Made by a program: the position numbers and the translations under genes | Source of the DNA: a virus | Taxonomy: Duplodnaviria > Caudoviricetes | DNA: 64,000 nucleotides | Reading direction: 5' to 3' (one strand) | IMG/VR virus record: IMGVR_UViG_2597489997_000001 | Location: 1 to 64,000 of that record | Notes under the pieces: model-generated | Told to the model about the DNA's origin: nothing | Database searches by the model: none | The model's input: only the letters and a program-made list of their open reading frames with translations | In this document: positions 916-48,940 of the stretch, in pieces | Layout of the letters: each line of letters begins with the position of its first letter | How positions within the stretch are numbered: position 1 is the first letter of the stretch

Positions 916-3117
916 TTATTCTGCATTCAGGCTGTCTTCGTTGTACGCTTCCAGCACAGAGTTCAGCATGTAGATACCTTTGCCGAACCACAGACGTGTG
1001 ATAGAGTACATGACAGACTTGGAAGTTGGAGAGTCTTCGCGGAACGAAGGCACGACTTCCCAGTTGGAGATTACAGAACCGAACAGATCACGAATACGTT
1101 TTTCAGCGCCGTCTTTAACGAAGGACAGATATCCTTCTTTACCGAGCTGGGTATCGCCAGAGACCTGAATCCAGATATCCTGGAGGATCTTCTCAACGAC
1201 AACACACTTCCAAACGTTAGTCAGGTCTTTCAGCACACTGTTGATGTTACCATATACAGTAGGCAGCGCCGGACGGCAGAACTGAGATTCAGTGATTGGA
1301 GTTACAGTGATGCAACCCTGGATCAGGTTGTTGGCAGCCGGGTCATCAGCTTCGAACTCAACGAATGGATCGTGAGCGATACGGAGGATACGGTTACCTT
1401 CATGGTCAGGCATGTCAGCCGCATAAATACGACCATCAGCACCACCACCTGCTACTGCGAATGCATACATGTTCTCGATGTTCAGAGAGAAACGACCCCA
1501 GGTAGGTTCGTTGATGTAACGAGCGTCCCAAAGGTTGATAGATGCACGACACGCTTCAGACTTGTATACTTCAGATTCAGGAATCATGACGATACGAGTG
1601 TTCAGCATGGTAGCTGTGGAATACAGTTCGTCCTGAGTTTTCTTACGGAGGTACTCAGTTGCACAAGGTACGACAATAATGTCTTTACGCTTGGACAGGA
1701 ACTGGATCATGATGTCTTTGATCTTCTGATTGTAACCAACGTCCCACATGAAAGAAGAACGGTTACGGATAACGTCTTTAACATCCAGTGAAGTGATGTA
1801 AGTCGTCAGGTAAGCCTCAATCAGCATCTGGTTCATTTCCCAGGCTTGCTTGTGGCTGATTACCAGATCAGGATCGGATACGTCTGCAACCCATGGACCA
1901 TCAATAGCTGGCAGCCAGGTAGTCGGAGCTTCTGGGAACTTACCATCTTTATCAGCGAACGGGTTGATGCCGCCGTTAGATTGCAGATAGTGGTTCATAG
2001 AGAAACGAGAACCGGTTACTTTACCAGCTTGGTCAAAGTTACCACCGAAGACGATGTGTTTGTATGGTTTGCCGTTATGGTTGACCAGATCAAACATGTT
2101 CATGATAGCGTGCTTAGGCAGACGCTTGCTCAGAACGTTCGGAGGTTGGTTAGTTGGATCGTCAGTACCGTATTCAGCAGCGTACAGTTCCTTAGCAACA
2201 TCGCTCAGGTTCTGGGTGTACATGAACACGTCGTCAAACGGTGCATCCTGAACTTCTACAGGACGGTTTACGTTATTACCAGTATACTGGTCGACAGCAA
2301 CCTTCAGGCCGTAACGAGTGTTGAATTCGTTAACAGTGTCGAACATAGTAAAGGTAGTATCCGGGGTACCGTTGATGGTATTAGCCGGAACACGTAAGCC
2401 ATTATCCAGCAGAACACCCATATTAAGGATGAATGGATAAGAACCGTTGGTCTGAACGAAACGAGCTACTTCGTTCCAGTCGGTCTGGAAGTTATGACCG
2501 ATAGAAATCCAGTTAGCGTTGTAAGTGTCACCAATACCACCGATTACTTCGGCCAGCGGATAGAACTTACCGTTAGTCCCTGTAGGGATGCCTGGAGTTT
2601 CATCGGTAGAGGTAACTTCGAATGCTTTCGCTTCGCCAACTTCGCCTTCAGATTTAAGAACGCCCGTGCAGACCCACTTACCAGCGATGGTCGCAGTGGT
2701 TTCATCTACCTTAGGGTTACCAGCAGCATCCAGAACGTAATCGCCGTTACCATCGCGAAGATAGTTAGGGATATCACCGGAGAAAATGGCCAGACCAATA
2801 ATAGTACGAGATTTCGCAGTATTGTTAGTCAGACGCTTGAAGCTGAATGAGGCTTGACCAGCCTGGCCCAGTTTCTGGATCGCGTACGTGACCGGGTTGT
2901 AATAAAGACCGAACGGGTCTGTCGTGTCACCAAACTTTGAAGTAAAGGTGCCAGTCGAAACCGTAGCTCGCTTGGTAGACCCACGAGGGGTTACTGCTGC
3001 GAAGTCCGGAAAGTGAGCAGGAGAGGAGATAACTGGGACCGCAGCCGGGAATGTCTCACGACTTACAATACCTTCATTAACTACTTTACCTGGAATCACT
3101 TTGTTAAAAGTTTCCAT
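916..3117 (-). CDS. Contractile tail sheath protein (phiKZ gp29-like)
   Basis: 733 aa; N-terminal FAAVTPRG..F..KFG and C-terminal WDVGY..K..M..FL..RKD segments typical of sheath proteins; divergent from virion genes. Confidence 0.85.
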   Translation of the reverse strand: METFNKVIPGKVVNEGIVSRETFPAAVPVISSPAHFPDFAAVTPRGSTKRATVSTGTFTSKFGDTTDPFGLYYNPVTYAIQKLGQAGQASFSFKRLTNNTAKSRTIIGLAIFSGDIPNYLRDGNGDYVLDAAGNPKVDETTATIAGKWVCTGVLKSEGEVGEAKAFEVTSTDETPGIPTGTNGKFYPLAEVIGGIGDTYNANWISIGHNFQTDWNEVARFVQTNGSYPFILNMGVLLDNGLRVPANTINGTPDTTFTMFDTVNEFNTRYGLKVAVDQYTGNNVNRPVEVQDAPFDDVFMYTQNLSDVAKELYAAEYGTDDPTNQPPNVLSKRLPKHAIMNMFDLVNHNGKPYKHIVFGGNFDQAGKVTGSRFSMNHYLQSNGGINPFADKDGKFPEAPTTWLPAIDGPWVADVSDPDLVISHKQAWEMNQMLIEAYLTTYITSLDVKDVIRNRSSFMWDVGYNQKIKDIMIQFLSKRKDIIVVPCATEYLRKKTQDELYSTATMLNTRIVMIPESEVYKSEACRASINLWDARYINEPTWGRFSLNIENMYAFAVAGGGADGRIYAADMPDHEGNRILRIAHDPFVEFEADDPAANNLIQGCITVTPITESQFCRPALPTVYGNINSVLKDLTNVWKCVVVEKILQDIWIQVSGDTQLGKEGYLSFVKDGAEKRIRDLFGSVISNWEVVPSFREDSPTSKSVMYSITRLWFGKGIYMLNSVLEAYNEDSLNAE

Positions 3118-3223
3118 AGTAAAACCTCATTAATTTTTTTGATCAAAAAAATCAATCGTATGACCCAAAATTCGGGCAGATGGTTAACGTTAACACGCAT
3201 AACATTATTTCAGGACTACAGTT

Positions 3224-4099
3224 ATGATTATAAATGGTTACGACACCACAGTAGGTAGTCGATTTAAAGTAAAGGATAAGGTTTCTGAAACTCTAAAGAT
3301 CTTACAAAGCACTGATAGACTTGACAAAGTTGACAATCGCGGTGTCTTTGCAATCGATCAAAAGAATGACTTCGGTCTTCCTCCTTTTGTATTCCCAATT
3401 TCAGTTTTCAACTATGTTCGGGAACCAATCACAATCATTGACCAACGTACCTACTTTAATAGTCAGGGCCGTAATATCAATGTTCCAGAATACAACGTTA
3501 TGCTTCTTGCTGCTACTTTGCAACAGGACTTACAACGTGGTAATTTGAACCTGGTTAAATCAGTGCGCCCATACACTATCAAAGCATTCGCAAATGCGGT
3601 TGGTAATGCTATTGCTCGTGCGGTTACACTGGACATTCTTCAGAAGATCCAACTGCGCGTTATTCTGGCTCACTATTTCGTTTGCCTGGCTGAGAATCCT
3701 AACGTGGATTACATGTTCATTTCTCAGAACGCGGTTTCCCGTGCCCTCGGTTTACAACAATCACAAGTCCAGGAAGTTATCCAGGACCTGGGTTATTTGG
3801 GTTCATTGGATGATCTCCTGAAAGCTATCAAATCTCATCCTTCCCTGTTTGCTCTGAGTCGCCTTGATATGGGTGGTTTGGTTGCAGCCGGTTCTTCTGT
3901 GTTCTTCTCCACATCTGGCTTTAAGATGTTGATGGGTGCTGCGCTGGAAATGCCAACACTGTTCACCGCTATCTGCTGGGGTGCTGCTACTCAGAAAATC
4001 TATCAGAACACTGCGGTTGGTCAAGAACTGAACGTGAAGACTGATAAGAAGGTAGAAAACTTTATCGCTACTGTTGAGTACTACTTTAACGGTAAATAA
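3224..4099 (+). CDS. Virion structural protein (phiKZ gp28-like)
   Basis: 291 aa ORF with AGGA SD; synteny between sheath and terminase. Confidence 0.55.
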   Translation: MIINGYDTTVGSRFKVKDKVSETLKILQSTDRLDKVDNRGVFAIDQKNDFGLPPFVFPISVFNYVREPITIIDQRTYFNSQGRNINVPEYNVMLLAATLQQDLQRGNLNLVKSVRPYTIKAFANAVGNAIARAVTLDILQKIQLRVILAHYFVCLAENPNVDYMFISQNAVSRALGLQQSQVQEVIQDLGYLGSLDDLLKAIKSHPSLFALSRLDMGGLVAAGSSVFFSTSGFKMLMGAALEMPTLFTAICWGAATQKIYQNTAVGQELNVKTDKKVENFIATVEYYFNGK

Positions 4100-8666: not shown

Positions 8667-8675
8667 GTCATATAA

Positions 8676-8705
8676 CCCTCTACTCTCCTTTCGGAGAGTA
8701 GAGGG
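8676..8705. terminator. Bidirectional intrinsic terminator hairpin
   Basis: CCCTCTACTCTCC-TTTC-GGAGAGTAGAGGG between convergent genes. Confidence 0.8.
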
Positions 8706-8722
8706 AATTATGATCTTTATTT

Positions 8723-12215: not shown

Positions 12216-13697
12216 TTATACCTTTGACTCCATGATTAATGTACGAAGAACAATATAAAGCATCAGACTGGTACGGAGCGAAGTGATCTTAATCTCGGTC
12301 TTAATACCTGTCATTGCTTTAACAATCTCATCGCCTTCAGCTCTCAGTTTGAGAAGTAACGCGTTTGAGGATTTGCTCGACGTATAAGCACCACGTATTT
12401 TAAAGAACACGTGTTTAACATCCTGGTGCTTGATTCCATTTGCACTTATATATTCAAACAAGTGCGTAGTTACGTCATCAACAAACTCACGATACTTATC
12501 GCCCTTAGCATGTGCATACTGGGCTGGGAAATCCTTAAGGATTGATTCCAACTTATCTGCATCAGTTCGGGGGATTGCTTTGGCTGCATAAGTTGCAAGT
12601 TCCTGTTTAAAGAAACTGTTCTTATCGTTCAGAACGTTTGCAATATAGTTCTTAAACCGGTTAGCAGATTTCTGAACATCCTTGATATTCAGTTCACCAT
12701 CCAGTAAAGCCAAGCCTGAGTCTGTCTCAACGAGATCAACGGAATCTTTAATCTCATAAAGCACTTTGGTGTAATCGTTAATAACACCTTTAAGACGGGA
12801 CTCCATATCGTTCACCATGTAAACGATTTTCTTGTCATTATCCATCTTAGCAAAGGCATCAAAGTGAATACCCGTACGAGGGTCGATAATAAACTCACCA
12901 CGAGCACGGAATAGATCATTCCATGAACCATAGCGCTTGATATCAAACTTCAAGGAGAGCTTGTTATAGGCCGTTATAGCGACGTTCTGTTTTACCAGAT
13001 AGCCGAAGTAGTGGTTCATGATAGACGTCATGACACGGTAGTGGAATAACATGACCAGATTGATCAATGCTTCGTTCTTCATATTGCTAGGAAGATTGGA
13101 ATTCCACACACGGTTCATTAGGTAGATAATAGACAGGTTGAAAGCTTCAGAAGAAACTTTAAAGTCTTTATTGATCCACTTGGTCTTGATCAGTTCATCA
13201 CGGAGTCTTACTTCATCCACGTCGATAATGTCGCGGAAGAAAGTAACACGGTCAGATGTTTTAAAGAGTACACGATGAGTCCCCAGATAAGGAGAGCCAA
13301 AGAACTCAGTATGATCATTGTCTTTAGTTGCGAAACCATAGACATAACGACGAAGAGTCTGTACCCAGCGAGGAGTAATCTCTAAATCTTCAACCAGGTT
13401 ATCAAAGATATCCTTAACTGCGTTGTCGCGGTTATAGTTGAAGTTGGCCGGTAGAGCTTCTAGCCCAGACCAGTATTCGGGGATATTCGCAGCGGATTCA
13501 AATCCACTAACCCAGCCTGGAGGAATTGCAGGAGCAAAGAAGTCAGTTAAAGGCTTACCCTCTAAACCAGCTAATAGCTCACGCATCTCAACGTCGGACA
13601 TGGCACGTTCGTATTTCTCTTCATCCGTTAACTCAAGGAATCGATACTTTACTAATCCGCCCATGTGACTTTTAAAACGATCAGTAGCAGCAGACAT
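12216..13697 (-). CDS. Conserved phiKZ-like hypothetical protein
   Basis: 493 aa ORF, translationally coupled on both sides. Confidence 0.7.
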   Translation of the reverse strand: MSAATDRFKSHMGGLVKYRFLELTDEEKYERAMSDVEMRELLAGLEGKPLTDFFAPAIPPGWVSGFESAANIPEYWSGLEALPANFNYNRDNAVKDIFDNLVEDLEITPRWVQTLRRYVYGFATKDNDHTEFFGSPYLGTHRVLFKTSDRVTFFRDIIDVDEVRLRDELIKTKWINKDFKVSSEAFNLSIIYLMNRVWNSNLPSNMKNEALINLVMLFHYRVMTSIMNHYFGYLVKQNVAITAYNKLSLKFDIKRYGSWNDLFRARGEFIIDPRTGIHFDAFAKMDNDKKIVYMVNDMESRLKGVINDYTKVLYEIKDSVDLVETDSGLALLDGELNIKDVQKSANRFKNYIANVLNDKNSFFKQELATYAAKAIPRTDADKLESILKDFPAQYAHAKGDKYREFVDDVTTHLFEYISANGIKHQDVKHVFFKIRGAYTSSKSSNALLLKLRAEGDEIVKAMTGIKTEIKITSLRTSLMLYIVLRTLIMESKV

Positions 13698-14545
13698 TAT
13701 CTTTTCCTCGGAACAGAGTACTTGATTTGGTCAGACTTGCCTTTAGGATCAGCGTACTGGAGACGTTTCTTAATTTCGTTCTCATAGAAGTCTTTAAACT
13801 CTCTGTGAGCATCAGCATAACCTTGGATATCATCCTGAAGGTCATCGACGGTTACACCGAAACGAGAAACGGCTTCTTGCATCCCACGGCGACAGTTCTT
13901 ATAGATATAAGTTTTGACACCAAGCTCTACAAGCTCAGCAAACTTATCATACATCTTCGGTGGAATTACAGAGAAGTGGTCGTCATAGGACAATACCACT
14001 TTGGCAATCATGTTAAAGAGAGCAGAGCCAGCATCACGAATGAGGAAGGAGTTATTCCCCGTCATGGTGAATGTAGTAAAGGTACGTTGAACGTTACCAT
14101 CATCAAGACCGTTGATCAGACGACCTAATGCGTTGTTCATTTGACCTACACCGCAGGTTGCATAGTTGCTGAAGTTATTACCGTTAGCAATAGCTCTGTT
14201 AATGTTTCCAGGGTACACTTCGATAACCTGGAGAATACGTCTACCACCTGTTAAGAAATCAGGTACGTTGACGTGGATAATCCCACCTTGGAGATTCTCA
14301 ATGTTTGCACTACTAAGATCAATGATCTCTGTAGTACCACCTGCTACGTTCAGCAGAGGAGCAACCATCTTCAGAATAACCTTCTCTCTTATACCTTGTT
14401 CAATAGAGAACTCAGTATTGACAGGTCCCCAAATACCACCATAACCGTTGTTCGGATTATCGAAGGCTAACTTGAGTAAATAGTCAGAGATATCGGTAGG
14501 ACCATTAATGACGTATTCAATAGAAAAGTCTACTGGGTTTGACAT
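13697..14545 (-). CDS. Conserved hypothetical (possibly virion) protein
   Basis: 282 aa, AAGGA SD. Confidence 0.7.
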   Translation of the reverse strand: MSNPVDFSIEYVINGPTDISDYLLKLAFDNPNNGYGGIWGPVNTEFSIEQGIREKVILKMVAPLLNVAGGTTEIIDLSSANIENLQGGIIHVNVPDFLTGGRRILQVIEVYPGNINRAIANGNNFSNYATCGVGQMNNALGRLINGLDDGNVQRTFTTFTMTGNNSFLIRDAGSALFNMIAKVVLSYDDHFSVIPPKMYDKFAELVELGVKTYIYKNCRRGMQEAVSRFGVTVDDLQDDIQGYADAHREFKDFYENEIKKRLQYADPKGKSDQIKYSVPRKR

Positions 14546-14591
14546 AATTAGTCCTTCATTTTTGTAAGCTTACAAAATATCCAAAGACAAT

Positions 14592-14627
14592 CAAAAACCC
14601 CTACCCCACCCAAAGGCGAGATAGGGG
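14592..14627 (-). terminator. Intrinsic terminator ending the RNA island transcript
   Basis: Minus strand CCCCTATCTCGCC-TTTG-GGTGGGGTAGGGG followed by TTTTT. Confidence 0.8.
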
Positions 14628-14641
14628 CAGAGGTAGTGTCA

Positions 14642-15250
14642 TTGCATACACCCTAGGGCAGACTCGATGGACTATATAGGAGCTACCCATAAATCCGACC
14701 AAATCTACCAAAGGCTGTCTACATTGATGTCAACAACTTCTCCCAGGCATGGGAGCAGACCGTTTGTAGCCTGCATCGTATAATGCCTTATACTGTCAGG
14801 TATGCTACGCTGTTTAGTCCCGTTAGTCTTTCGGGGAGTCGCTCACGGTTAAGGCGCGACTAGACATGACGGCTTCACTAATGCTGGAGACATTATCGTG
14901 AAGACCCGTTTCGTCTGCAATTTATATCCCCGTCAGACTCGTCAGATGTTCCGGGCGTTCTCTCCCACCAGAGAGTAGGTCGAGTGAAACGATGTCGCGA
15001 GGTCAACTGTAAGTTGCCGATTAATCCATCAAGTCTTTGACAAGGGATATTAAATTCGCTTTCGTTCGAATCACTCTGTTTGTTAGGGAAGCTAACCAAA
15101 GTTACTTTAACTACGGTCTGTGGATAACCTAGGGTTAAAAGATAAGTTTGACGGCTAGCTCCCTAATGGATTGCACCATCCTGTTCACTACGCTTCGAGT
15201 ACTCGGGTATGAGATATTATTACTCAGCTTGAGATCGACAGGTGATGCAA
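14642..15250 (-). ncRNA. Candidate large structured ncRNA (about 610 nt)
   Basis: No credible ORF; terminal helix 14642-14652 with 15241-15250, nested long-range helices, terminator 15 nt downstream. Confidence 0.7.
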
Positions 15251-15260
15251 AGGAAGAAGG

Positions 15261-15580
15261 TCCCGATTAGATCGTTACCTAAAAAGGGTGCGCGGGCTTG
15301 TCAGTAGGCGGCGCATACGCCACCAGTACCGGACCCGCAGCTATAGTCGCCATGCTGGCGACACCCACCAGGAACTACTACTGCGACAGGACTATGGCCT
15401 GAGTTCATTCCTGGATTTACGACCGGGAGGGTAAACCCCCGGTATTTGCCTTCCCATCGGCCACACCAGCCACGGAAGGTCTTACAATCCCAGCATGTCA
15501 ACTGGCACACCCCTCTTAACCCACATCGCTATCCGCAGGGAGTTAAGCAAGACATACACTTCTCGACATACAATCGGGAT
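15261..15580 (-). ncRNA. Candidate GC-rich structured ncRNA (about 320 nt)
   Basis: Terminal helix TCCCGATT/AATCGGGA, many strong internal hairpins, no credible ORF. Confidence 0.65.
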
Positions 15581-15584
15581 ATTG

Positions 15585-15995
15585 TCATTTCACCAGATCG
15601 TACTTAGTATCCATCTCGGCACGTTTGCTATTGCTTACGTATTCCTCAAAGGTACATTTATACCAGTCACCCTCACCGATTTCCCGGCTATAGAAGATAA
15701 CTGCTGGGTCGTAAGCTTTCTTAGAAGGCTTATCCACAGGACGGTGAAACACTTGTAATGTATGACCCAATTCTGATATCAGATAGGCTTCATGATCATT
15801 ACAGATAAACGTTGGCTGTACACCATGTCCGTGTTCCACCACAATAATGGTGTTCTTCGGCATGTCGGCATACTTACCACCGTACTCACCCATATTAGTC
15901 AAACGGTTAATCACCGAGTTATGAGTAATATGGAAGAATTTTTCCCGGTTGGCTATTTCGCCAGTTGGGTTGCTTGAAACAAGCTTCAATAACAT
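15585..15995 (-). CDS. Hypothetical protein
   Basis: 136 aa with GAGG SD. Confidence 0.7.
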   Translation of the reverse strand: MLLKLVSSNPTGEIANREKFFHITHNSVINRLTNMGEYGGKYADMPKNTIIVVEHGHGVQPTFICNDHEAYLISELGHTLQVFHRPVDKPSKKAYDPAVIFYSREIGEGDWYKCTFEEYVSNSKRAEMDTKYDLVK

Positions 15996-16039
15996 AGTAA
16001 CCTCAATTGCTTCTTATTGTTGGAGATTAAATGAAATTA

Positions 16040-16116
16040 TGGTGGCCCCGGCGTGACTTGAACACGCGACCAAGCGATTATGAGTCACCTGCTCTAACCG
16101 TCTGAGCTACGGGGCC
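16040..16116 (-). tRNA. tRNA-Ile2 (CAU, lysidine type)
   Basis: Cloverleaf GGCCCCG..GACTCATAATCG..GGGGCCACCA, closely resembling enterobacterial tRNA-Ile2 rather than tRNA-Met; encoded CCA. Confidence 0.9.
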
Positions 16117-16120
16117 GGAA

Positions 16121-16196
16121 TGGCGCGCCCTACAGGATTCGAACCTGTGACCAATAGCTTAGAAGGCTACTGCTCTATCCACTGAGCTAAGAGCGC
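16121..16196 (-). tRNA. tRNA-Arg (UCU)
   Basis: Cloverleaf, anticodon loop CTTCTAA, GGTTCGAATCC T arm, CCA. Confidence 0.95.
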
Positions 16197-16204
16197 CGAA
16201 TTAC

Positions 16205-16471
16205 TTATTCTGCTACCTTAGCCAGATTTGCTTTATGGGAAGCCACTACAGGAACTAAACCCTGGAACCCATGCTTGTTGTACTGACCGTCAACGAAGAT
16301 CTGAGGAACAGTTTGAACTTTCTCTCCACACATCTCGCTGAGTTTAGCACCATCAATACCAGCTTCCACGATATTGACATATTCGTGAGTGATGCCTTCA
16401 ACACCTTCAACCAGTGCTTTAGCGCGATCACACCATGGACAATTAGGCTTACCATAAATTACAACATTCAT
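16205..16471 (-). CDS. grx: Glutaredoxin
   Basis: CPWC active site and TVPQIFVDG motif. Confidence 0.9.
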   Translation of the reverse strand: MNVVIYGKPNCPWCDRAKALVEGVEGITHEYVNIVEAGIDGAKLSEMCGEKVQTVPQIFVDGQYNKHGFQGLVPVVASHKANLAKVAE

Positions 16472-16701
16472 TTTGGGATTCCGTTTAAAGGAGAATGATA
16501 GAACATACCTCTGGATGGCATATTCAATATACCTGCTGGTTTCGTTGCAAACACGTTGTAGGGTTTACTTTCGCGGATACCTACCTCTAACGTTAATCTG
16601 GCAATCAGTGGATTAAAGAAACTAAAACCAGTAACTGTTAAATGTGGTTGCTCAGAAACATATTTAAAATCATTGGGAACAAAACCTTCTGGCACTTCCA
16701 T
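16468..16701 (-). CDS. Hypothetical protein
   Basis: 77 aa, AAGGA SD, ATGA overlap with grx. Confidence 0.6.
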   Translation of the reverse strand: MEVPEGFVPNDFKYVSEQPHLTVTGFSFFNPLIARLTLEVGIRESKPYNVFATKPAGILNMPSRGMFYHSPLNGIPK

Positions 16702-16732
16702 AATGATTCCTTAGAAGCAGTGGTCATAAATA

Positions 16733-16821
16733 TGGCAGAGAGTATGGGATTCGAACCCATGAGCCCCGAAGGACTGCCTCCTTAGCAGGGAGGTGACTTA
16801 AACCAACTCATCCAACTCTCT
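16733..16821 (-). tRNA. tRNA-Ser (GCU)
   Basis: Long variable arm, anticodon loop CTGCTAA, G73, CCA. Confidence 0.95.
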
Positions 16822-16825
16822 AATG

Positions 16826-16901
16826 TGGCGCTCGTGACAGGGCTCGAACCTGTGACATACGGATTAACAGTCCGCCGTTCTACCGACTGAACTACACGAG
16901 C
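16826..16901 (-). tRNA. tRNA-Asn (GUU)
   Basis: Anticodon arm GCGGA-CTGTTAA-TCCGT, G73, CCA. Confidence 0.95.
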
Positions 16902-17111
16902 TAAATTCTTGCCCCTCATTAGGATTCCGCCTAATGTTTAACCGGCTGGCCGCCGGGGTACAGTCTCAACAGAGTTACTTTAGGATTATTGTCCTAAAGA
17001 CAATCATGGGGATTTTAACCCACACTTCTACTAGACCTAGTCCTCTACCAACGAGGTGGAGTCGATACCACCCTTCTTAAAGCACTATCATAATAACACT
17101 TTAAGAAAGGT

Positions 17112-17235
17112 AGGTTCCCGCTTCGGTATTTAAACCAGCACTGATTCTACTTGTAGACTGATCACTCTTTTGGTTTACCTGACACCGTGGTCAATGTATC
17201 ACCTGAATGAGGCTACTTTCGAAGGGCAGCGGGAG
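17112..17235 (-). ncRNA. tRNA-like structured element (about 120 nt)
   Basis: Closing stem CTCCCGCT/AGCGGGAA with a 3' T-arm-like GGTTTAAATACC. Confidence 0.4.
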
Positions 17236-17241
17236 TTTGTC

Positions 17242-17466
17242 TTATCCAGCATTAAAGCTGTTTAAAACGAATCCTTGAGGGTGGAGAGAGTTGTTGGACA
17301 ACAACGTTATCTTTACAGTGTCTGCTGGGATTTTATCACAGCAACAATGATTGAATAACGCAGTAGCTAACCAGACCGCTCTGCTTTCTCTAGGAGCCGA
17401 TACCACACAGGCATCGAATTCGTCATAACTGATCGAATCAGTTCTTTCAACAAGATATAGGTTCAT
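17242..17466 (-). CDS. Small hypothetical phage protein
   Basis: 74 aa; MNLYLV..YDEFD..VV.A pattern common in small phage proteins. Confidence 0.7.
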   Translation of the reverse strand: MNLYLVERTDSISYDEFDACVVSAPRESRAVWLATALFNHCCCDKIPADTVKITLLSNNSLHPQGFVLNSFNAG

Positions 17467-17693
17467 CTATTTAATCCCAATTAGTGAAATAGGAGCTAAT
17501 ATGGCTCTTTATGTTTTTCGGCTAATTGTGACTCAAACCTAACATGTTGATTGTATCTACCAGATTGTGGTCCTGCACTATACAACACTGGCTAGCTGGA
17601 ACATGTAATCACCAGTGAGATTCCTGCTCGCTGCAACGCGTCCCCAGGAAGGGGAAGTTTTGTACTGCTTAACAGAGTATAGAAACTCAGTTA

Positions 17694-18017
17694 TTAAATT
17701 ACTTCATACCAATCAAGAGCTTGCGCATCAGAGACTGATGGAACCCAGGTATTGATTGTTTTAGTTTCTTCGTTAACGATAACAAAGAAAGGCTGGATAT
17801 AAGCAAAGTTTGCATCAAGAGGATTAACTGGATCAGTACCCTCAAATTTGATATGGTTGGTCGGAATAGATCCATGAATCTGAATATATAGGTGTTTGCC
17901 ATTCCATCCTTTACGGGCAAACTTACGGGCCTTCTTATTTTCCAGACTTCTGATCATGAGATCATTAACCATCCCGTAGGATAAGAGAAGAGGGCCTTTA
18001 ACTTGTTCTTGTGTCAT
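17694..18017 (-). CDS. tad2: Tad2-like (DUF2829) cyclic-nucleotide sponge
   Basis: ARKGWNGK and W.PS.SD..A.DW signature motifs. Confidence 0.8.
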   Translation of the reverse strand: MTQEQVKGPLLLSYGMVNDLMIRSLENKKARKFARKGWNGKHLYIQIHGSIPTNHIKFEGTDPVNPLDANFAYIQPFFVIVNEETKTINTWVPSVSDAQALDWYEVI

Positions 18018-18237
18018 GTTAATTTCCGGTGGGGTAAAAAGCTCCCTTGAATGGGTTTAATCAAACAAGGGAGAATGGTTGATCTAAGGAACACAGAAAC
18101 CCTAGATCGAGGCTACACCTGCCCGGTGCGCTTTCTGATGGGGACTTGATAGATCCCATTAAAAAGCTGAGGACATCCATCCTCAGTTGGTCAAATCGAC
18201 CCAATGCGTAAGCAGTTATATGAAGTATGCGGCGCGT

Positions 18238-18830
18238 ACTTCCCTATGGTTATTCTGAAAAACAAACATAGGGTAGTGGGGTCAGAAGACCCCAGCAACC
18301 AACCTCATTCGTACCGAAAGTATCCATACCTTCTTTATAAGAACTCATTCGGTAGAGAACTTATAAAGAAAGCAAGTGGGTTGATAAGGTCCACTCACTC
18401 TCAGTATTCCTTAATCATATCGCCAAATATAATTAAGACGTGGCAACCACACGATTTTAAACTACTGTTACAAACTCGCTTTTTTGGAAAGAACACGCAT
18501 GACCATGGCTTTCTTTATAGTGACTCATTCTAATAGAGATACCATAAAGAAAGCGAAGAGGGTGGAGGAAAAGTGAGACCAACCCTCTCAGCTTTAATTA
18601 CGAGACATGAGAGTTATGCAATGAAAGTTAGCAAGCAAGCAGTACCTTTCTTTATAAACACTCATTCAAGTGGAGTAATTATAAAGAAAGAGGAAGGTGA
18701 CTAGTCTTCCGCTTTGAGTATAGAGAGTTTTAATAATGATTGAATCATGGCAGCGAAACCGGATTCATTAAAGTACGATGGCGCGCACTTCTTAATAGGC
18801 ACTAATCCATTCAATACTTATTAAGAAGTG
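18238..18830. repeat. Array of repeated long hairpins (TTCTTTAT..ACTCATTC..ATAAAGAA)
   Basis: Near-identical copies at 18331-18370, 18508-18554, 18646-18690; divergent copies at 18238-18277, 18786-18830 and 17072-17110. Confidence 0.85.
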
Positions 18831-18951
18831 GACATGTTTAATTTTACATAACATATCCATCGCCAGTAGAAGTTTACTGGAAAAGCAAATGAGCAATGGA
18901 ATCTGGAAAGGGTCGCCGAAGATCCATTTAGCGTATACCTCTCTTTCTTCA

Positions 18952-18977
18952 CATAATATAAATCACTGCACTAAAAA
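18952..18977 (-). promoter_or_regulatory. Putative leftward promoter of the RNA island
   Basis: Minus strand TTTTAGTGCAGTGATTTATATTATG, similar to TTTTACTGATAGATTGTATATTATG upstream of chimallin. Confidence 0.5.
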
Positions 18978-18995
18978 TTAACAGACAGATATTAT
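18975..18995 (+). promoter_or_regulatory. Putative phage early promoter
   Basis: AAATTAACAGACAGATATTAT. Confidence 0.65.
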
Positions 18996-19039
18996 TAGAT
19001 TGAAACCATACATAGTTTTTATTATAGAGGAATTACCCC

Positions 19040-41841: not shown

Positions 41842-43920
41842 ATGTCTGGAGTAGGTCCTTTTCTCTCTGAAAACTATGAGAGCGATCGCAATCTGTTAAA
41901 ACACGCGATCAGTCAGTACAGCATGATGGTTAGCCGTAGCCAAGGTTTAGATGAAGACGAAGTTAAACGAAACTTTGTTGAGTTCTTTAAAGGTAACAAA
42001 GATAAGTTCAAATCACTGAGAGCTAAGGTTATCGTTAAGAACAAGATGGAAGACCGTGAGATGAAAATCTTACCTTTGTCATCTGTCTTTAAATATGTTC
42101 AGGAAAAGAACTATCACTTATCTCCATCAATGGTGGCTTACACTCACTCTGATGAAGAAGAATGTGTTAACTCGATTGGTACCCGTCTATTCATCGATAA
42201 CCGATCCTACTATAAACAGTTGATGCAGAAAGCCCGCGACGCCGGTGACAACGAAAACCGTGATAAGTATAAAGAAATCCAGAACGCCTTTAAGATCTTT
42301 AACAACGCCCAATCCGGTGCCATGTCATCCGAAGGTACACCAATTAACAATAAGACGGGTCATACATCATTGACCTCTACTTGTCGTTGCTTAACATCTA
42401 CAGCTAACCTGATCAACGAACAGTTCATTGCCGGTAACCACTTCTATAACACACCAGAGAACACGTTACAGTCAATCATGGCTCGTCTACAGGTAACGGA
42501 TTACAAGCTGTTAGAAAGCGTTATGGAGAAGTACAAGCTGCATTATGCAACAACCGAAGACTTGATGGAATCCATTCATTATTGTTCACGTCGTTATTGG
42601 ACGTCAGCAAAACACATGGCGATCATCGAACACTTCTTAATGCACATTTCTCCGCTGGAACGTTCTGCGCTTCTTTATACCCTTGACCTGGTATCTTTGT
42701 TCAAACATAACAAAGAGTTCGTTAGTGGATTCTTCGATGAGTGGGTTTCTATGAATCCGCCTGAAGAAGGGAAAACAGAGAAAGATTACCTGGCTCCGGA
42801 TAACGGTGACAAGTACGTACTCTGTGTATCCAAACTCCACCGTAAACCAAGTAAGGTAGAGGTCAACGCACTGAACACTCGACATATGGAAGTTGAGGCT
42901 AAGTACTCAGACTTCATGAAGATCTTCTTCAACTCCCCAATTCCACCGTCTGGTCTGTTCGATGTAACTTCCTCTATCCGTGACTGTGTATTGACTTCCG
43001 ATACTGACTCCTCCATTTATACAGTGGACGAAATGATCGAAGCATATACTCATGACCGTGAGAAAGGTGTTAACCTGAACGGCGTTCTGACTTACTTCAT
43101 CCGCATGATCTCTGTTGACCAACACCAACAGCTCTCAGCTAACTTAAACGTGGCTAAGAAGAACCTGCGTATGCTGGGTATGAAGAACGAATACTATTTC
43201 GGTGCTTATGTTACCACGCTGATGTCCAAACACTATTATGCTAGCCAGCAGATGGTTGAAGGTGTTCGTAACTCAGAACCTGAAATGGAAATCAAAGGGG
43301 TTCACCTTAAATCTTCTAAGATCGCATCGAACATTAAAGACTTCGCTCAGAAACTCATGGGTGATACTTTAGATGCTATCGAGCACAAGAAGAAACTCAG
43401 CCCAGCTGAAACGCTGAAAGAGATTGGTGACCTGGAACGTACCATCGTTGATGACATTCAAGCTGGTGATTGGAAATGGTTATCTCGTCAGGGTGTTAAG
43501 GGTTCTGCTTCTTACTCTAAACCTATGGCATCGGTATACTTCTATCACGAACTGTGGGAGAATGTATTCGCTGAGAAATATGGTCCGGCTCCAGAACTTC
43601 CATACACTGGCGTTAAGATGTCAGTTGATTTGGGTAGTAAGACCAAGGTTAAGGAATTCATAGAACGTCTGGAAGATAAAGCATTAGCTGACCGCTTCTT
43701 GAAGTTCATGGAATCCACTGGTCGTACTGATTTGGGTAACTTGGTTGTTCCTATGGAACGTATGCAGTTCCTTGCCGACATTCCAATTGAGATCAAACAA
43801 GCTATCGATTATCGTACAGTAATCAAACAAAACCTGAAGTGTGTTTATGAAGTTCTGAACTCCACAGGCTTGTACTTTATGAATGATTCAATCAGTCGTC
43901 TGGTTAGTGACGAACACTAA
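41842..43920 (+). CDS. Family B DNA polymerase, polymerase-domain subunit (phiKZ gp50-like split polymerase)
   Basis: KIFNNAQSG (motif B), SDTDSS (motif C), KHYYA and EIKGVHL. Confidence 0.85.
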   Translation: MSGVGPFLSENYESDRNLLKHAISQYSMMVSRSQGLDEDEVKRNFVEFFKGNKDKFKSLRAKVIVKNKMEDREMKILPLSSVFKYVQEKNYHLSPSMVAYTHSDEEECVNSIGTRLFIDNRSYYKQLMQKARDAGDNENRDKYKEIQNAFKIFNNAQSGAMSSEGTPINNKTGHTSLTSTCRCLTSTANLINEQFIAGNHFYNTPENTLQSIMARLQVTDYKLLESVMEKYKLHYATTEDLMESIHYCSRRYWTSAKHMAIIEHFLMHISPLERSALLYTLDLVSLFKHNKEFVSGFFDEWVSMNPPEEGKTEKDYLAPDNGDKYVLCVSKLHRKPSKVEVNALNTRHMEVEAKYSDFMKIFFNSPIPPSGLFDVTSSIRDCVLTSDTDSSIYTVDEMIEAYTHDREKGVNLNGVLTYFIRMISVDQHQQLSANLNVAKKNLRMLGMKNEYYFGAYVTTLMSKHYYASQQMVEGVRNSEPEMEIKGVHLKSSKIASNIKDFAQKLMGDTLDAIEHKKKLSPAETLKEIGDLERTIVDDIQAGDWKWLSRQGVKGSASYSKPMASVYFYHELWENVFAEKYGPAPELPYTGVKMSVDLGSKTKVKEFIERLEDKALADRFLKFMESTGRTDLGNLVVPMERMQFLADIPIEIKQAIDYRTVIKQNLKCVYEVLNSTGLYFMNDSISRLVSDEH

Positions 43921-45348: not shown

Positions 45349-47256
45349 ATGTCCCTCGATACCATCAACAACGGCAACAACAACTCTTCTTCTAACAACG
45401 CTGGTAACTCTCAAATGAAAAGTTCCGAAAATGCTCTGTTCGCTCTGCTGGGTCAATCTAACCTGATCTCCTCTACTCACAACATCACCGAAGTTTCTGA
45501 TGTTGTTAAGTCCCTGGAAGAAATGGTTAAACACCTGGATAAGAACACCGCAAGCCAGGCGCAGAAACTGTCTCTGCCACGCAACATCCGTAACGTCACT
45601 TCCGACATCAGCCCGCAGCTGCCAGGTATCATCCTGTCTACCGTTGTTAACGCGACTGCATACGTTCAGCCGGTTCTGTTCTTCAAAGTGGGTGTAACTG
45701 AAGTTACCGAAACTATCGTTCTGGCTAACGAAGCAATGCCACGTGGTATCGCTAAAGTTCCAACTTCCTTCATGACTCAGGAAGTAATGGAAAAAGTGAA
45801 ATCCGCATACGCATTCGTTGACAGCAAACAAATGGACAAAGTTGTTATCCTGTCTCCAATGGTTCTGAACCTGGAGAAGTTCATCAAGAACTCTCTGAAG
45901 TACGAAGACATGATCGCCGACGTTCGCAACGTTCTGCTGAAAGAGTGGAACACTGGTCTGTACAACACCGTAGTTCTGGATGTTGCCAAAGCTGGTGCTG
46001 AATTCCCTAACCCGTTCAAAGACGGTAAACTGTTCGGTAAAGACGATGCAGCAGTAGCTCGTATCGAACCTATCAACAAACAGTCTATCGACGGCGTACC
46101 GGTTCCGTACAACCTGGCAGTTAAACTGGCTACCACCAACAAAAACAACACTCAGAACATGAACAGCAACAACACTAAGTCTGTTGCAACTTCTTACCTG
46201 ACTGTTAGCCTGGAAGCGATGTCTCAGCAGCAGTTCATGGCTGCGAAGATGGCTCGTCCTGGCGCAAACGTTGGACCTCTGGTTCCAGTGATCTCTACCG
46301 GCGTAACCGTACCAGGCGAAACCCTGAACAACAACAACTCCATGTTGACCGCAGCACTGGGTCTGTACGCATCTATCGGTGCAAACCAGATGCAGTTCTT
46401 CTCTGAAGCATTCCGTGGTAAAGAAGTGGGTCACCGTGGTAACCTGTCTAACTTCAACTACTACCTGTCTCAGATCCTTCAGGGCGCGTACAGCACTCCT
46501 CAGTTCATCACTGATAAGAACATCACCAACGCCAACGCAGTTAACGACTGGCTGCAACGCTATGTAGCTCCGAACGCAGTATACGTTCTGGATCTGGGTA
46601 GCTTCGGTGAAGATGTTTCTAACTCTGATTTCTGGTGGAACGTGATCGTTAAGCCTTCTGGCTCTACTTATCACCGTGCGCTGGTTAACCTGCTGGACGT
46701 TCTGTCTGGTGGCGCATTCAGCAAAATCGCTGCTGAGAACGCATCTAAGCCAAACCGTGATCCACGTAAAGACTGGGCACCTGGCGATGCAATCCTGAAA
46801 CCAACCAACATCATCATGCCTTCTGGTATTGCACAGGGTAAAGATGGTAAGTGGTTCGACCTGGCAGAAGTTGACGGCATGTTCCTGCGTCAGGACAACT
46901 ACTACGGTCAGAACGAAATCGCTGTAAACGAATACCTGGGTCTGGTATGTGGTTCAATGGGCGGCGATGCGAAAGTTCGTCAGTTCAACATCTACAACCG
47001 TCTGAACCAGCTGTTCGGCACCAACGTAATCGTTGATGGTTGGAAACGTCGTTTCGTGTGGGAAGATTCCTTCTTCAACACCTTCGCTAAAGCGATGGCT
47101 TCTGCTGGTATGCTGTCTATGTCTGCATCTAACCTGGGTGCAATGTGGACTCACCAGTTCAGCAACGACTACCTGACCAGCACCATGACTGCAATGCTGT
47201 CTCAGAACTTCGGTTCAGGCGCAATGGCATTCAACGGCGGTTACTCCCACTACTAA
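45349..47256 (+). CDS. chmA: Chimallin, phage nuclear shell protein (phiKZ gp54-like)
   Basis: 635 aa, strong high-expression codon bias, low-complexity termini, directly upstream of the nvRNAP beta' gene as in phiKZ-like phages. Confidence 0.85.
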   Translation: MSLDTINNGNNNSSSNNAGNSQMKSSENALFALLGQSNLISSTHNITEVSDVVKSLEEMVKHLDKNTASQAQKLSLPRNIRNVTSDISPQLPGIILSTVVNATAYVQPVLFFKVGVTEVTETIVLANEAMPRGIAKVPTSFMTQEVMEKVKSAYAFVDSKQMDKVVILSPMVLNLEKFIKNSLKYEDMIADVRNVLLKEWNTGLYNTVVLDVAKAGAEFPNPFKDGKLFGKDDAAVARIEPINKQSIDGVPVPYNLAVKLATTNKNNTQNMNSNNTKSVATSYLTVSLEAMSQQQFMAAKMARPGANVGPLVPVISTGVTVPGETLNNNNSMLTAALGLYASIGANQMQFFSEAFRGKEVGHRGNLSNFNYYLSQILQGAYSTPQFITDKNITNANAVNDWLQRYVAPNAVYVLDLGSFGEDVSNSDFWWNVIVKPSGSTYHRALVNLLDVLSGGAFSKIAAENASKPNRDPRKDWAPGDAILKPTNIIMPSGIAQGKDGKWFDLAEVDGMFLRQDNYYGQNEIAVNEYLGLVCGSMGGDAKVRQFNIYNRLNQLFGTNVIVDGWKRRFVWEDSFFNTFAKAMASAGMLSMSASNLGAMWTHQFSNDYLTSTMTAMLSQNFGSGAMAFNGGYSHY

Positions 47257-47317: not shown

Positions 47318-48940
47318 TTGTTTTACTTTAGAGAGGTTTATTTTTTAATGACTAATACCGTAGCCGACATTCTGAACAAGTTCTCTGATGAGAATATGAT
47401 TCCTTCTATCTTGTTCGATACAATGTTGAAAGACACCGGCATTAAACATCCTGGCGACGACGAAAGTTTCTATTCACCACTGTATCCTGACTTCGAAGAC
47501 TTCGATCTCAAACACGATACATCTATAGTTGCTCCGGTATATCTGAATGACTTCGACTTTAACATCGAAGAAGACCGCGAAGCAATCATCGAACTTCTGC
47601 GTACCGAATTCGAAGGTAACAACTTTGACACCGTAGCGAGCTGTCAATGTAAGAAGTATCGTTGGAATGGTTATCTGGGTTCTGAGTTCGTTTGTGATAA
47701 CTGTGGGCATAAGGTCACCAAACCCCTTACTGCTCGTATTGAAACCAAAGTCTGGTTAAAACGTCCAGCTTATGTATCTGGATTTGTTAGTCCAGCCATG
47801 TATGCTGTATTCTTTAGTAAGCTCAATACCAAATCTCCGAAAGTAAACTTAGTTGACTACTGGGTGAACTCTCAGATTCGTAATGAGAAACGTTTTAAAG
47901 ATCCAGCCAACAATGCGTTTAAGATTGCGGCTAAACTGGAAGCCTTCCGCAATACACTGGGAATTGAATTCGGGTATAACAGTTTCATCGACAACATCGA
48001 CCTGATCATCCGTGGTGCAGTTGAACACGATGTGAGTAAGGTACTGGACCTGACTGAAAATGACCGTCGTCATTATGCGTTGTTCTGGGAACGTTATCGT
48101 ACCAAAGCTGTATTTAAGTATCTCCCACTCCCTAACAAAATCACCACAGTCGTTGAATCGGATCAACGTGACCGCTATGTAAACAAAGAGCAAACAGATC
48201 TGGATAAGATCTACTTTACTCTGGCTGACACCTATCCGATCGATGATGTTCGAGCTGATGAGAACGAAGACTTAATGGGCCAGAACCTGAAACCATTAGT
48301 CGATGCATTAGCTGAAGTACAGAAGAACATTCTGTTCGGTAAGAAAGGTATGATTCGCTATCATGCTGGCGCAGGTAAGTTGCCATTTACTGGTCGTTCT
48401 ATTATTACCGGTGAATCTGGCGTCTGTCGTTCTGATACAATCATTCTTCCTTGGTTGTATGGTCTGACTTGTCTGGATAAACATCTTACGAACTGGTTGT
48501 ATCGTAAGGGTTATACTCCGATGAAGATCAAGGAGATTATCCGAACAGCTGCTCACACCCGACATCCTGTAATCGAAGAGTTCTATAACTGGATCGAAAC
48601 CAATCGCTATGCGATGGCTACGGCTGGTCGAAATCCATCGATTCAATATCTGTCTGCTCGTGGGTTCTTCGTTAAGTTCAACCGTGATCTTGACGATAAG
48701 TCCATCCGTATTCCAATCACCACCGTTAAGGAGTTTGGTGCGGACTTCGATGGCGACCAGATGTACGTTATCTTCATCCCGGATATGATTTCTAAAGCGG
48801 AAGCATATTCTAGCTGGGGTCACCATCAGATGTTGGACCCGAATAAGCCATTTAAGGTTTCTCGTTTCGGTACCCATACCAAAACTAACTTATTAAATAT
48901 CAACTCGTTGTTACTTAACGAACCAATTGAGGAGAGTTGA
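47318..48940 (+). CDS. Non-virion RNA polymerase beta' N-terminal/catalytic subunit (phiKZ gp55-like)
   Basis: Zn ribbon SCQC..CDNC, GKKGMIR, FTGRSIIT, RNPS, ADFDGD; true start probably MTNTVAD. Confidence 0.92.
   Translation: MFYFREVYFLMTNTVADILNKFSDENMIPSILFDTMLKDTGIKHPGDDESFYSPLYPDFEDFDLKHDTSIVAPVYLNDFDFNIEEDREAIIELLRTEFEGNNFDTVASCQCKKYRWNGYLGSEFVCDNCGHKVTKPLTARIETKVWLKRPAYVSGFVSPAMYAVFFSKLNTKSPKVNLVDYWVNSQIRNEKRFKDPANNAFKIAAKLEAFRNTLGIEFGYNSFIDNIDLIIRGAVEHDVSKVLDLTENDRRHYALFWERYRTKAVFKYLPLPNKITTVVESDQRDRYVNKEQTDLDKIYFTLADTYPIDDVRADENEDLMGQNLKPLVDALAEVQKNILFGKKGMIRYHAGAGKLPFTGRSIITGESGVCRSDTIILPWLYGLTCLDKHLTNWLYRKGYTPMKIKEIIRTAAHTRHPVIEEFYNWIETNRYAMATAGRNPSIQYLSARGFFVKFNRDLDDKSIRIPITTVKEFGADFDGDQMYVIFIPDMISKAEAYSSWGHHQMLDPNKPFKVSRFGTHTKTNLLNINSLLLNEPIEES

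Follow-up and report, generated by a model that had tools for sequence, protein, structure and literature searches.

A leftward, RNA-rich island in a jumbo phage, centred on a predicted self-cleaving RNA of about 985 nucleotides

What does a phage keep in 4494 nt of which most is neither open reading frame (ORF) nor transfer RNA (tRNA) gene? The question was raised by positions 14546-19039 of a 64,000-nt stretch of viral DNA (hereafter the window), which is the first 64 kb of the 284,757-bp IMG/VR record IMGVR_UViG_2597489997_000001. In this island ORFs account for 1457 nt and tRNA genes for 318 nt, leaving 2719 nt (60%) as neither (arithmetic on the ORF and ARAGORN calls), and the ORFs supported by a family or a relative, together with all four tRNAs, lie exclusively on the minus strand (ORF listing, ARAGORN, Rfam). 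A preliminary description made from the letters alone had read the region as a leftward, mostly non-coding and RNA-rich island, dense in helices and closed by a strong terminator at its left end, and all of this was borne out by the analysis reported here. It had further proposed one polycistronic transcript, and on this point we came to a different answer: the island is probably composed of RNA and accessory genes in several transcription units, rather than one operon, and is centred on an RNA of ~985 nt that is predicted to cleave itself.

The large structured RNA and its predicted hammerhead ribozyme

The left part of the island holds one conserved unit of ~985 nt (15573-14589, minus strand), present as the sole copy in the genome and divided as follows:

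14868-15573, minus strand: 5′ module (~706 nt) of the large RNA, closed at the 3′ end by the hammerhead (profile match, covarying helices)
14629-14867, minus strand: 3′ module of the large RNA, ~278 nt including the terminator (helices 15-18 covary)
14590-14628, minus strand: intrinsic terminator of the large RNA (hairpin and T run, covarying)

Syntenic islands were found in Serratia phages Sureiya and Yubaba, Klebsiella phage N1M2 (L002), Kosakonia phage Kc263 (L003), Erwinia phage AH04, Pantoea phage Survivor, Shewanella phage SXP01 and five IMG/VR contigs; searching for further relatives through the DUF7484 protein returned the same five IMG/VR contigs only. The order in these relatives is tmk, two virion genes, a long gap, tRNAs and grx, small ORFs, tad2, a gap and divergent genes, and in all of them the ~0.8-1.1 kb upstream of the DUF7484 gene is unannotated or carries short hypothetical ORFs only. 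An nhmmer profile of the large RNA, built from nine of the relatives' gaps, matched 13 of 13 clade loci, 10 of them over model positions 3-1008 and three just up to model positions 726-794. The preliminary description had split this stretch into RNAs of 320 and 610 nt; the profile instead defines a single unit, and the U-run near 15275 that suggested the split is specific to the window.

Secondary structure was predicted with RNAalifold on 12 distinct sequences, all from one clade. The consensus contained 103 pairs, with 92.4% of cells paired and both-side changes at 56 of the pairs. In 500 column shuffles, the observed pairing, covariation score and count of both-side changes were never reached, and paired cells fell to 43-51% when the 3′ partners were slid by 1-3 columns; the shuffle control ignores kinship, and the slid-partner control alone accounts for it. 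For the large RNA, the structural conservation in related jumbo phages that the preliminary description had proposed looking for was found. Against a shuffled background, the z-score of the minimum free energy (MFE) for 14590-15584 was -5.77 on the minus strand versus -1.99 on the plus strand, and the fraction of G plus C (GC) in the region rises up to 0.54-0.585 over a background of ~0.42. ORFs within the large RNA showed no protein-level conservation among the relatives. Rfam gave no family for the window copy (14560-15600) at E ≤10, GOLLD and ROOL included, nor for six relatives' loci at E ≤1. On these sequence comparisons, the large RNA is a structured RNA gene of a family without prior description, no motif of Rfam 15 having matched it, although members might be present among the hammerheads listed with PMC3088659 or the 224 motifs of PMC5737381.

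Invariant motifs of the 5′ module are UGUAAGACC (15486-15478), UAAAUCC (15419-15413) and GAACGAAAG (15067-15059), and its covarying helices include 15479-15472/15456-15449, 15414-15407/15375-15368 and 15076-15066/14992-14982. A scan of IMG/VR with a pattern of the 5′ module, which was too loose, returned at least 116 stretches, and none of the 115 new loci listed matched the profile.

As to annotation, ORF N1M2_252 of N1M2 (on the opposite strand) and QYN80068 of Kc263 lie inside the large RNA (L002 3373-3885 and 1913-2590; L003 3325-3516 noted), and both are probably spurious. The start of the N1M2 DUF7484 gene appears to be annotated too late, the tblastn match reaching ~2755.

A weak Rfam match to Hammerhead_1 (16.6 bits) led to the inspection of 14960-14850, where a probable processing agent overlooked by the preliminary description was recognized:

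14864-14955, minus strand: type I hammerhead ribozyme (core invariant, covarying stems, pseudoknot)
14955-14952, minus strand: 5′ strand of the hammerhead pseudoknot
14949-14946 with 14867-14864, minus strand: hammerhead stem I
14945-14939, minus strand: hammerhead CUGACGA
14938-14934 with 14917-14913, minus strand: hammerhead stem II
14932-14929, minus strand: loop strand of the hammerhead pseudoknot
14912-14910, minus strand: hammerhead GAA
14909-14869, minus strand: hammerhead stem III
Between C14868 and A14867, minus strand: predicted cleavage site of the hammerhead

The catalytic core was the same throughout the family. CUGANGA (C3-A9) was found in 13/13 sequences, with only N7 varying (C, U or A), and G10.1-C11.1, GAA (G12-A13-A14), A15.1-U16.1 and C17 were likewise invariant in all 13, as were the strings CGAAAC and CCGUC; alignment pair 55-99 was A-U in 12/12. 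Around this core the stems have changed in a compensatory manner: 91.1% of cells in stems I-III were paired and 16 of the 23 pairs changed on both sides, a result reached by none of 500 shuffles, with the slid controls at 30-44% paired. The alignment was made with a covariance model built from these same 13 sequences, and the scores of that model being circular, it is the invariant core and the compensatory changes that serve as evidence for the hammerhead. Moreover, loop II pairs with the 4-7 nt preceding stem I in all 12 distinct sequences, forming a covarying pseudoknot (CAUCG/CGAUG, UGUCG/CGACA, CGUCG/CGACG, GUUCG/CGAAC, CCCG/CGGG) that was recovered independently by RNAalifold as helix 11 (97.2% paired, 4/6 pairs changed on both sides). 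Pseudoknots between loop II and stem I occur in ~40% of hammerheads and are required for fast cleavage, according to PMC3088659, which also describes hammerheads as frequent in prophage transcripts. Stem III is ~40 nt long with a conserved CUCCA apical loop, and the low score against RF00163 is explained by the Rfam alignment, which forces a stem III of 4 bp. The ribozyme, at one copy per genome, is a type I hammerhead with an intact catalytic core, for which self-cleavage is predicted.

Outside the clade, the hammerhead model gave no credible match in Aeromonas phages D6, PS1 and ZPAH34, Klebsiella phage phiKp_32 or Pseudomonas phage EL (0/5; best 10.2 bits, in a coding region). A metagenome scan with a hammerhead pattern returned at least 120 stretches; of the 120 listed, none matched the large-RNA profile at E ≤1e-3 and one matched weakly at E 0.05, and these stretches were set aside as unrelated hammerhead-like strings.

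The 3′ module has a different distribution. It comprises a hairpin with the conserved loop GCCUUAACCGUGAG (14855-14842), then AAACGGUC (14765-14758), a hairpin at 14755-14740 and GAGAAGUUGUUGA (14742-14730), and was present in 10/13 loci. It is absent from L004, L137 and L139 (that is, L004, Survivor and SXP01), where the terminator directly follows the cleavage site. Aeromonas phages PS1 and D6 also carry its motifs ahead of their DUF7484 gene (a hairpin whose loop reads GCCYUAACNGUGAG, then AAACNGUC, another hairpin and GAAGUUG), ZPAH34 carries part of them, and all three phages are without the hammerhead; in phiKp_32 and EL neither the hammerhead nor the 3′-module motifs were found. The simplest history would be an older 3′ RNA that was later fronted by a 5′ RNA bringing its own ribozyme.

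Gaps without tRNA annotation in these Aeromonas phages contain tRNA-like sequences with the T-arm GGUUCGAWUCC (D6, L260, ~2400-2470; ZPAH34, L262, ~3390-3470; PS1, L261, ~3040-3125, ending in CCA). These may be unannotated or unusual tRNAs.

The terminator expected at the left end (14597-14628) forms 14 pairs, 8 of them G-C, followed by a T run, and its helix (helix 19) covaries in 12 sequences (12 pairs, 6 with changes on both sides). Its motif, of the CCCCUAC...GGGGUAGGGGUUUAU type, recurs in the window at 8668-8713 (plus strand) and in the genome at 77501, 78823, 109645, 141057, 229806-229855, 236458-236513 and 248430-248486. The recurring hairpin looks like a genome-wide conserved intrinsic terminator motif, as reported for phiKZ, whose conserved terminator motif, as given in PMC10914365, resembles that of the large RNA.

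From these observations, the following course of events is the most probable. The large RNA (15573-14589) would be transcribed toward the conserved intrinsic terminator, and the hammerhead, aided in folding by the pseudoknot of loop II with the sequence 5′ of stem I, would cut its own backbone between C14868 and A14867. The predicted products are a ~706-nt 5′ RNA that retains the ribozyme and has a 2′,3′-cyclic phosphate end, and a ~278-nt 3′ RNA that has a 5′-OH and carries the terminator. With a stem I of 3-4 pairs, product release should be favoured, so that the products would separate instead of religating. The ribozyme would thus be a device for 3′-end maturation of the 5′ module, and in the three relatives without the 3′ module it would merely take off the terminator. 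Least certain is what the modules do: by analogy, both could be stable trans-acting RNAs of the GOLLD/ROOL kind, which might target translation or tRNA, or divert the RNA-directed defence of the host by serving as decoys.

Several points weigh against this account. The large-RNA family is small and closely related, and the shuffles ignore shared ancestry. The window copy is without several central-region motifs common to the other members, has the 136-aa (amino acid) ORF between tRNA-Met and the large RNA, and shows no clear promoter motif before the RNA (7/10 positions match, by eye). For the ribozyme, the RF00163 score of 16.6 bits stands below the gathering threshold of 34, with E-values of 5, 1 and 0.07 that are at chance level for the search sizes; the 82-108 bits given by our own model to its training sequences are circular and carry no weight; and stem I is only 3-4 bp, its outermost pair being open in 6/12 sequences. 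There is no Rfam match to GOLLD or ROOL. Finally, among the listed public runs recorded as RNA, none holds the stretch, so that transcription, RNA ends and cleavage in vivo are all inferred, beside the conservation, covariation, intact core, strand asymmetry and motif layout observed directly.

Promoter-like motifs, the hairpin array and the number of transcription units

The right part of the island, upstream of the Tad2-like gene (tad2), contains the following features:

18951-18990, minus strand: promoter-like motif (AT-rich box, then TATATTATGT) at which the hairpin-array RNA probably starts
18036-18950, minus strand: hairpin-array RNA, which precedes tad2 as a long structured leader (repeats D1-D3, inverted repeats I1, I3, I8)
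18830-18786 (degenerate), 18691-18645, 18554-18508 and 18374-18328, minus strand: array hairpins
18186-18167 and 18071-18036, minus strand: two terminator-like hairpins, each with a U run, separating the array from tad2

The preliminary description had placed a leftward promoter at 18952-18977. A sigma-70 promoter scan found nothing there (4 sites overall, 14.6 expected by chance), and what stood of the claim was a conserved, phage-specific motif at 18951-18960. Only two exact copies of this 10-mer, TATATTATGT, exist in the 284,757-bp genome, one at 18960-18951 (minus strand) and one at 45133 (plus strand), 207 nt upstream of the gene for the chimallin homologue, and the 30 nt upstream of the two copies are similar. 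With ≤1 mismatch, TATATTATGT was found at the same position in 11/11 loci that cover the intergenic region. An exact copy lies at the 5′ edge of the large RNA in 5/13 loci, and weaker copies occur ~100 nt downstream of the first and after tad2 in several relatives. When a 12-mer was searched with ≤2 mismatches, 13 of 20 matches fell outside ORFs ≥120 aa, which leave 11% of the genome uncovered. The motif was not enriched in the window at ≤1 mismatch (5 observed, 6.0 expected); what makes it stand out is how rare its exact copies are and where they are placed. These results support TATATTATGT as a candidate phage-specific promoter. An early timing of array transcription would follow solely from the parallel with chimallin.

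The distribution of these motifs argues against a single transcription unit. A single leftward transcript from ~18960 to the terminator at 14597, cut by host RNases (RNase P, Z, E and III) into products that serve counter-defence or translation, is conceivable and we regard it as unlikely. In its favour, all elements share a strand, 14597-14628 is the one strong intrinsic terminator that conforms to the canonical genome-wide type, tRNAs among ORFs require processing anyway, and the hammerhead itself shows built-in processing. However, two hairpin and U-run elements precede tad2, promoter-like motifs stand in relatives ~100 nt downstream, after tad2 and (5/13) at the 5′ edge of the large RNA, and none of the listed public RNA runs contains a transcript of the stretch. 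The hairpin and U run just ahead of the tad2 ribosome-binding site recur in relatives with other stem sequences (by eye). The single polycistronic unit of the preliminary description was thus not upheld. Under the preferred arrangement in several units, a chimallin-type promoter would drive a ~0.9-kb RNA with 3-4 hairpins (conserved AU-rich stems), ending at the terminator-like hairpins before tad2, and tad2 would be reached by read-through only.

A second alternative concerns the large RNA itself. The hammerhead might be a prophage-style site for processing of messenger RNA (mRNA) or operons, and the sequence around it a structured 3′ untranslated region or spacer that protects or times upstream messages (the 136-aa ORF, the tRNAs) and does not act in trans. 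Gene-flanking prophage hammerheads were proposed to divide long transcripts (PMC3088659), and in the window the RNA directly follows an ORF. Yet a stabilizing untranslated region needs far less than ~1 kb of RNA with 103 predicted pairs and motifs that are invariant in internal loops. Moreover, what lies upstream changes from relative to relative, be it tRNA-Met, grx, other ORFs or a promoter motif, and only the RNA is constant. The conserved sequence of the RNA starts ~20 nt past tRNA-Met in Sureiya, Yubaba and N1M2, and in the window tRNA-Met is 467 nt upstream. We therefore consider this explanation doubtful, and keep to the large RNA as a gene in its own right.

The array hairpins are 41-47 nt long, three strong copies and one degenerate, with arms CUUUCUUUAUAA and UUAUAAAGAAAG, and the strong form was found nowhere else in the 285-kb genome. 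Homologous hairpins are present in the same intergenic region of 9 relatives, one to five in each. The arms are conserved in sequence rather than covarying, and the inner stem and loop vary but retain a GAGU element. MFE z for 18160-18960 was -8.98 on the minus strand and -5.50 on the plus strand. Since palindromic arms of conserved sequence fold on both strands, and the array lies between divergent gene blocks near a shallow minimum of GC skew, it might act as DNA, as a replication origin or as protein-binding palindromes. This was judged very improbable. In 27 hairpins from 10 genomes, the sense (leftward) strand was more stable in 25/27, and G·U pairs numbered 58 in the sense and 8 in the antisense strand, an asymmetry indicating that selection has acted on the hairpins as RNA, or as single strands, with the same polarity as the island. 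In addition, the arms are between 13 and 25 nt apart, a variable spacing that is ill-suited to a dimeric DNA-binding site, and the skew minimum also coincides with the leftward gene block.

The cumulative GC skew of the 285-kb record reaches its global minimum, which is shallow, at ~17-19 kb, where the divergent intergenic region and the leftward gene block lie. Targets complementary to the loop element GAAUGAGU numbered 8 per strand against ~4.3 expected, scattered beyond the array's own copies, and no excess was concluded.

That the non-coding stretches are decayed genes or mobile-intron remnants with an inactive relic of a hammerhead is hardly credible: N1M2 and Kc263 have annotated hypothetical ORFs in the homologous region, and jumbo phages are reported to have introns and homing endonucleases (PMC13282480), but every catalytic nucleotide is kept in 13 copies, the stems covary, the small ORFs are not conserved as proteins, Rfam gives no intron family, and the element is always at the same locus.

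Two further motif classes were noted. One has a copy in the island:

14570-14581, minus strand: promoter-like motif GATATTTTGTAA, between the terminator and the DUF7484 virion gene

Strings like GATATTTTGTAA stand upstream of the homologous gene in Kc263, SXP01, PS1, D6 and ZPAH34 (by eye), making it a candidate promoter of the virion-gene block. The other class, TATATTACCTAA after TTTCA...TCAGACC, is promoter-like and distinct from that of TATATTATGT, with intergenic copies at 50681, 116476 and 220763 (all plus strand). Just past the tad2 stop, UUUCUAUACUCUGUUAAGCAG (17665-17690, minus strand) resembles TATATTCTGTTAAGAAC at the same place in Sureiya, Yubaba, L004 and AH04, and may be a promoter for the conserved element (block C) and the 74-aa ORF that follow.

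Genes, smaller RNA elements and the phage

The island contains four tRNAs, grx, the Tad2-like gene, three small ORFs and at least five conserved structured RNA elements. In order of transcription these are the hairpin array, the Tad2-like gene, a 74-aa ORF, a structured spacer, tRNA-Asn and tRNA-Ser, a 77-aa ORF, grx, tRNA-Arg and tRNA-Met, a 136-aa ORF and the long non-coding stretch; the order given in the preliminary description agreed with the ORF, tRNA and family calls.

13697-14545: DUF7484 virion gene, left boundary of the island
15585-15995, minus strand: 136-aa ORF, no family match, partial protein matches in L003 and L004 only
16040-16116, minus strand: tRNA-Met (ARAGORN)
16121-16196, minus strand: tRNA-Arg (ARAGORN)
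16205-16471, minus strand: glutaredoxin gene grx (PF00462, E 2.2e-12)
16468-16701, minus strand: 77-aa ORF, protein 57% identical in L005
16733-16821, minus strand: tRNA-Ser (ARAGORN)
16826-16901, minus strand: tRNA-Asn (ARAGORN)
16912-17114, minus strand: element B1, ~203 nt, opening with a long hairpin
17117-17233, minus strand: element B2, ~117 nt, multi-hairpin, closed by CCCGCUG/.../CGGG
17242-17466, minus strand: 74-aa ORF, phrog_5444 (a family with no assigned function), protein conserved in 6 relatives
17560-17653, minus strand: block C, ~95-nt conserved RNA element between tad2 and the 74-aa ORF
17694-18017, minus strand: Tad2-like (DUF2829) gene, 107 aa (PF11195)
From 19040: divergently transcribed genes, right boundary of the island

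The identification of tad2 made from the letters was confirmed by a match to PF11195 (E 1.3e-13, 51.7 bits, cut-off 25). Among PDB entries, the protein matched ModTad2 9eib and Tad2 8v3e (both E 4.8e-06), SptTad2 8wjd (2.9e-05) and SPO1 Gp34.65 8sme (2.1e-03), and AcrIIA7 9kzr was also among the matches. Membership of the Tad2 family is therefore supported by homology.

The four tRNAs scored 52-74 bits in Rfam. Rfam scans by gathering threshold and by E-value, covering the window, the island, the 1-kb stretch and six relatives' loci, returned tRNAs and chance-level matches only. RNase P, transfer-messenger RNA, group I and II introns, GOLLD, ROOL and other ribozyme families were accordingly rejected as identities. 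A tRNA-like element had been placed upstream of the tRNAs in the preliminary description; for 16902-17241, ARAGORN and Rfam (E ≤5) reported only the four annotated tRNAs, and a tRNA identity was dropped.

Instead, this spacer contains B1, to which the supposed tRNA-like element corresponds, and B2. B1 is 75-78% identical to L006 and Shewanella SXP01, and RNAalifold on 3 sequences gave 58 pairs, 10 changed on both sides; for B2, 4 genomes gave 52 pairs with 11 changed on both sides, a count that includes the first B1 hairpin. MFE z for the spacer was without strand preference (-3.35 vs -4.60). Block C is 83-84% identical to Sureiya, Yubaba and N1M2, the flanking proteins being ~40% identical, and RNAalifold on 5 sequences gave two conserved hairpins (15 pairs, 5 changed on both sides).

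The arms of the B1 opening hairpin (CCUUUCUUAAAG...CUUUAAGAAGGG, 17110-17071, minus strand) resemble those of the array ~1.3 kb upstream, and the array hairpin family may extend beyond the array to B1.

As for the phage, a 635-aa ORF at 45349-47256 (plus strand) matches phrog_4795 'nuclear shell protein' at E 3.4e-163, the same profile that phiKZ gp054 matches at 1e-230. The ORF is flanked on one side by a divergent family B DNA polymerase gene and on the other by a gene for an RNA polymerase subunit, the setting that gp054 has in phiKZ:

41842-43920, 47318-48940, 60348-61136 and 61557-62366: genes noted alongside the chimallin homologue in phiKZ-like synteny (DNA polymerase B and split RNA polymerase)

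Subunits of a phiKZ-type split RNA polymerase were found by tblastn to gp055 (2.3e-26), gp071 (3e-19) and gp073 (1.5e-14). Direct comparison of the 635-aa ORF with phiKZ gp054 by genome search, tblastn or BLASTP gave no similarity, and there was no Pfam match, so its link to chimallin runs solely via the shared PHROG profile. Because of the chimallin homologue, the phiKZ-like synteny and the homologues of gp055, gp071 and gp073, it is a fair inference that this is a nucleus-forming phage (chimallivirus), which agrees with what had been read from the letters.

Significance and relation to known systems

New large structured RNA families are rare, and each so far has pointed to unusual biochemistry. 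The large RNA offers a testable handle in a cleavage site predicted to the single nucleotide, and its cultivated carriers (Sureiya, Yubaba, N1M2, Kc263, AH04, Survivor and SXP01) make it directly testable. If confirmed, this would be an unusual ribozyme dedicated to maturing non-coding RNAs, not mRNAs or replicons, and, judged by literature searches, possibly the first self-cleaving ribozyme in chimallin-encoding jumbo phages. The motif shared with chimallin gives a candidate promoter class for the clade. A bolder and rather improbable extension is that the 5′ module represents a new class of large functional RNA, catalytic or self-assembling like GOLLD and ROOL, with an activity dependent on the cyclic-phosphate end made by the hammerhead, and that together with the 3′ module, the array RNA and Tad2 it forms an early, largely RNA-based cassette for counter-defence or takeover under chimallin-type promoters. 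If true, this would be well matched to phages that form a nucleus, since their DNA is shielded and their RNAs are still exposed to host immunity.

The Tad2-like protein resembles the Tad2/DUF2829 anti-defence proteins in a whole-domain Pfam match above cut-off and in homology to solved Tad2 proteins; AcrIIA7 falls in the same family. Protein-sponge RNAs of the CsrB/RsmZ type carry repeated hairpins. The array shares with them several copies of one hairpin on one non-coding RNA, but a GGA loop was found in just 1/4 of the window hairpins, and the conserved part here is an AU-rich stem with a GAGU loop element. A closer plan is offered by phiKZ, also a chimallivirus, in which non-coding RNAs derive from 5′ untranslated regions by premature termination (Putzeys et al., 2024; PMC10914365): promoter, structured leader, terminator and gene follow in the same order. 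The phiKZ species described there are 71-196 nt, whereas the array leader is ~0.9 kb with a repeated hairpin of conserved arms.

The ribozyme shares with the type I hammerheads of bacteria and prophages, as presented by Perreault et al. (2011; PMC3088659), the core CUGANGA, GAAA and GUC cleavage site, the three-helix junction with stem I open, a side pseudoknot of 4-7 bp between loop II and stem I, and the setting in a phage transcript. It differs from those in being a constant part of a ~1-kb non-coding RNA, where it divides RNA modules and not genes, in its stem III of ~40 nt with the CUCCA loop, in scoring below the Rfam type I threshold, and in belonging to a chimallin-encoding jumbo phage. 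Full-text literature searches for hammerhead or self-cleaving ribozymes in jumbo, nucleus-forming or phiKZ phages returned nothing or unrelated CRISPR papers. In the available part of a 2026 jumbo-phage review (PMC13282480) 'ribozyme' occurs 0 times, and only the expression of non-coding RNA in phiKZ is mentioned. In line with the preliminary description, which knew of no such unit, none was found in the literature searches. An association of hammerheads with the 'drum' RNA motif found no support in the passages of PMC5737381 consulted and was dropped.

GOLLD and ROOL are large phage RNAs near tRNA islands, one GOLLD lying downstream of tRNA-Met (bioRxiv 10.1101/2024.12.08.627333 and PMC5737381). 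The large RNA is alike in size (0.6-1 kb), in its complex conserved fold and in being phage-encoded beside tRNA genes, and it likewise consists of two modules of which the 3′ one is more widespread. It matches neither Rfam model in sequence or structure, so that the comparison is one of size, fold, phage origin and tRNA neighbourhood, not of homology. Oligomeric cages are a known feature of GOLLD and ROOL. The large RNA differs in having a predicted self-cleaving ribozyme, and the word 'hammerhead' occurs 0 times in the available part of the cryo-electron microscopy preprint on those RNAs (10.1101/2024.12.08.627333). Thus, the hammerhead class is known, the ~1-kb RNA that it would mature belongs to no described family, and a large phage RNA that stands beside tRNAs and has a built-in ribozyme is a new combination.

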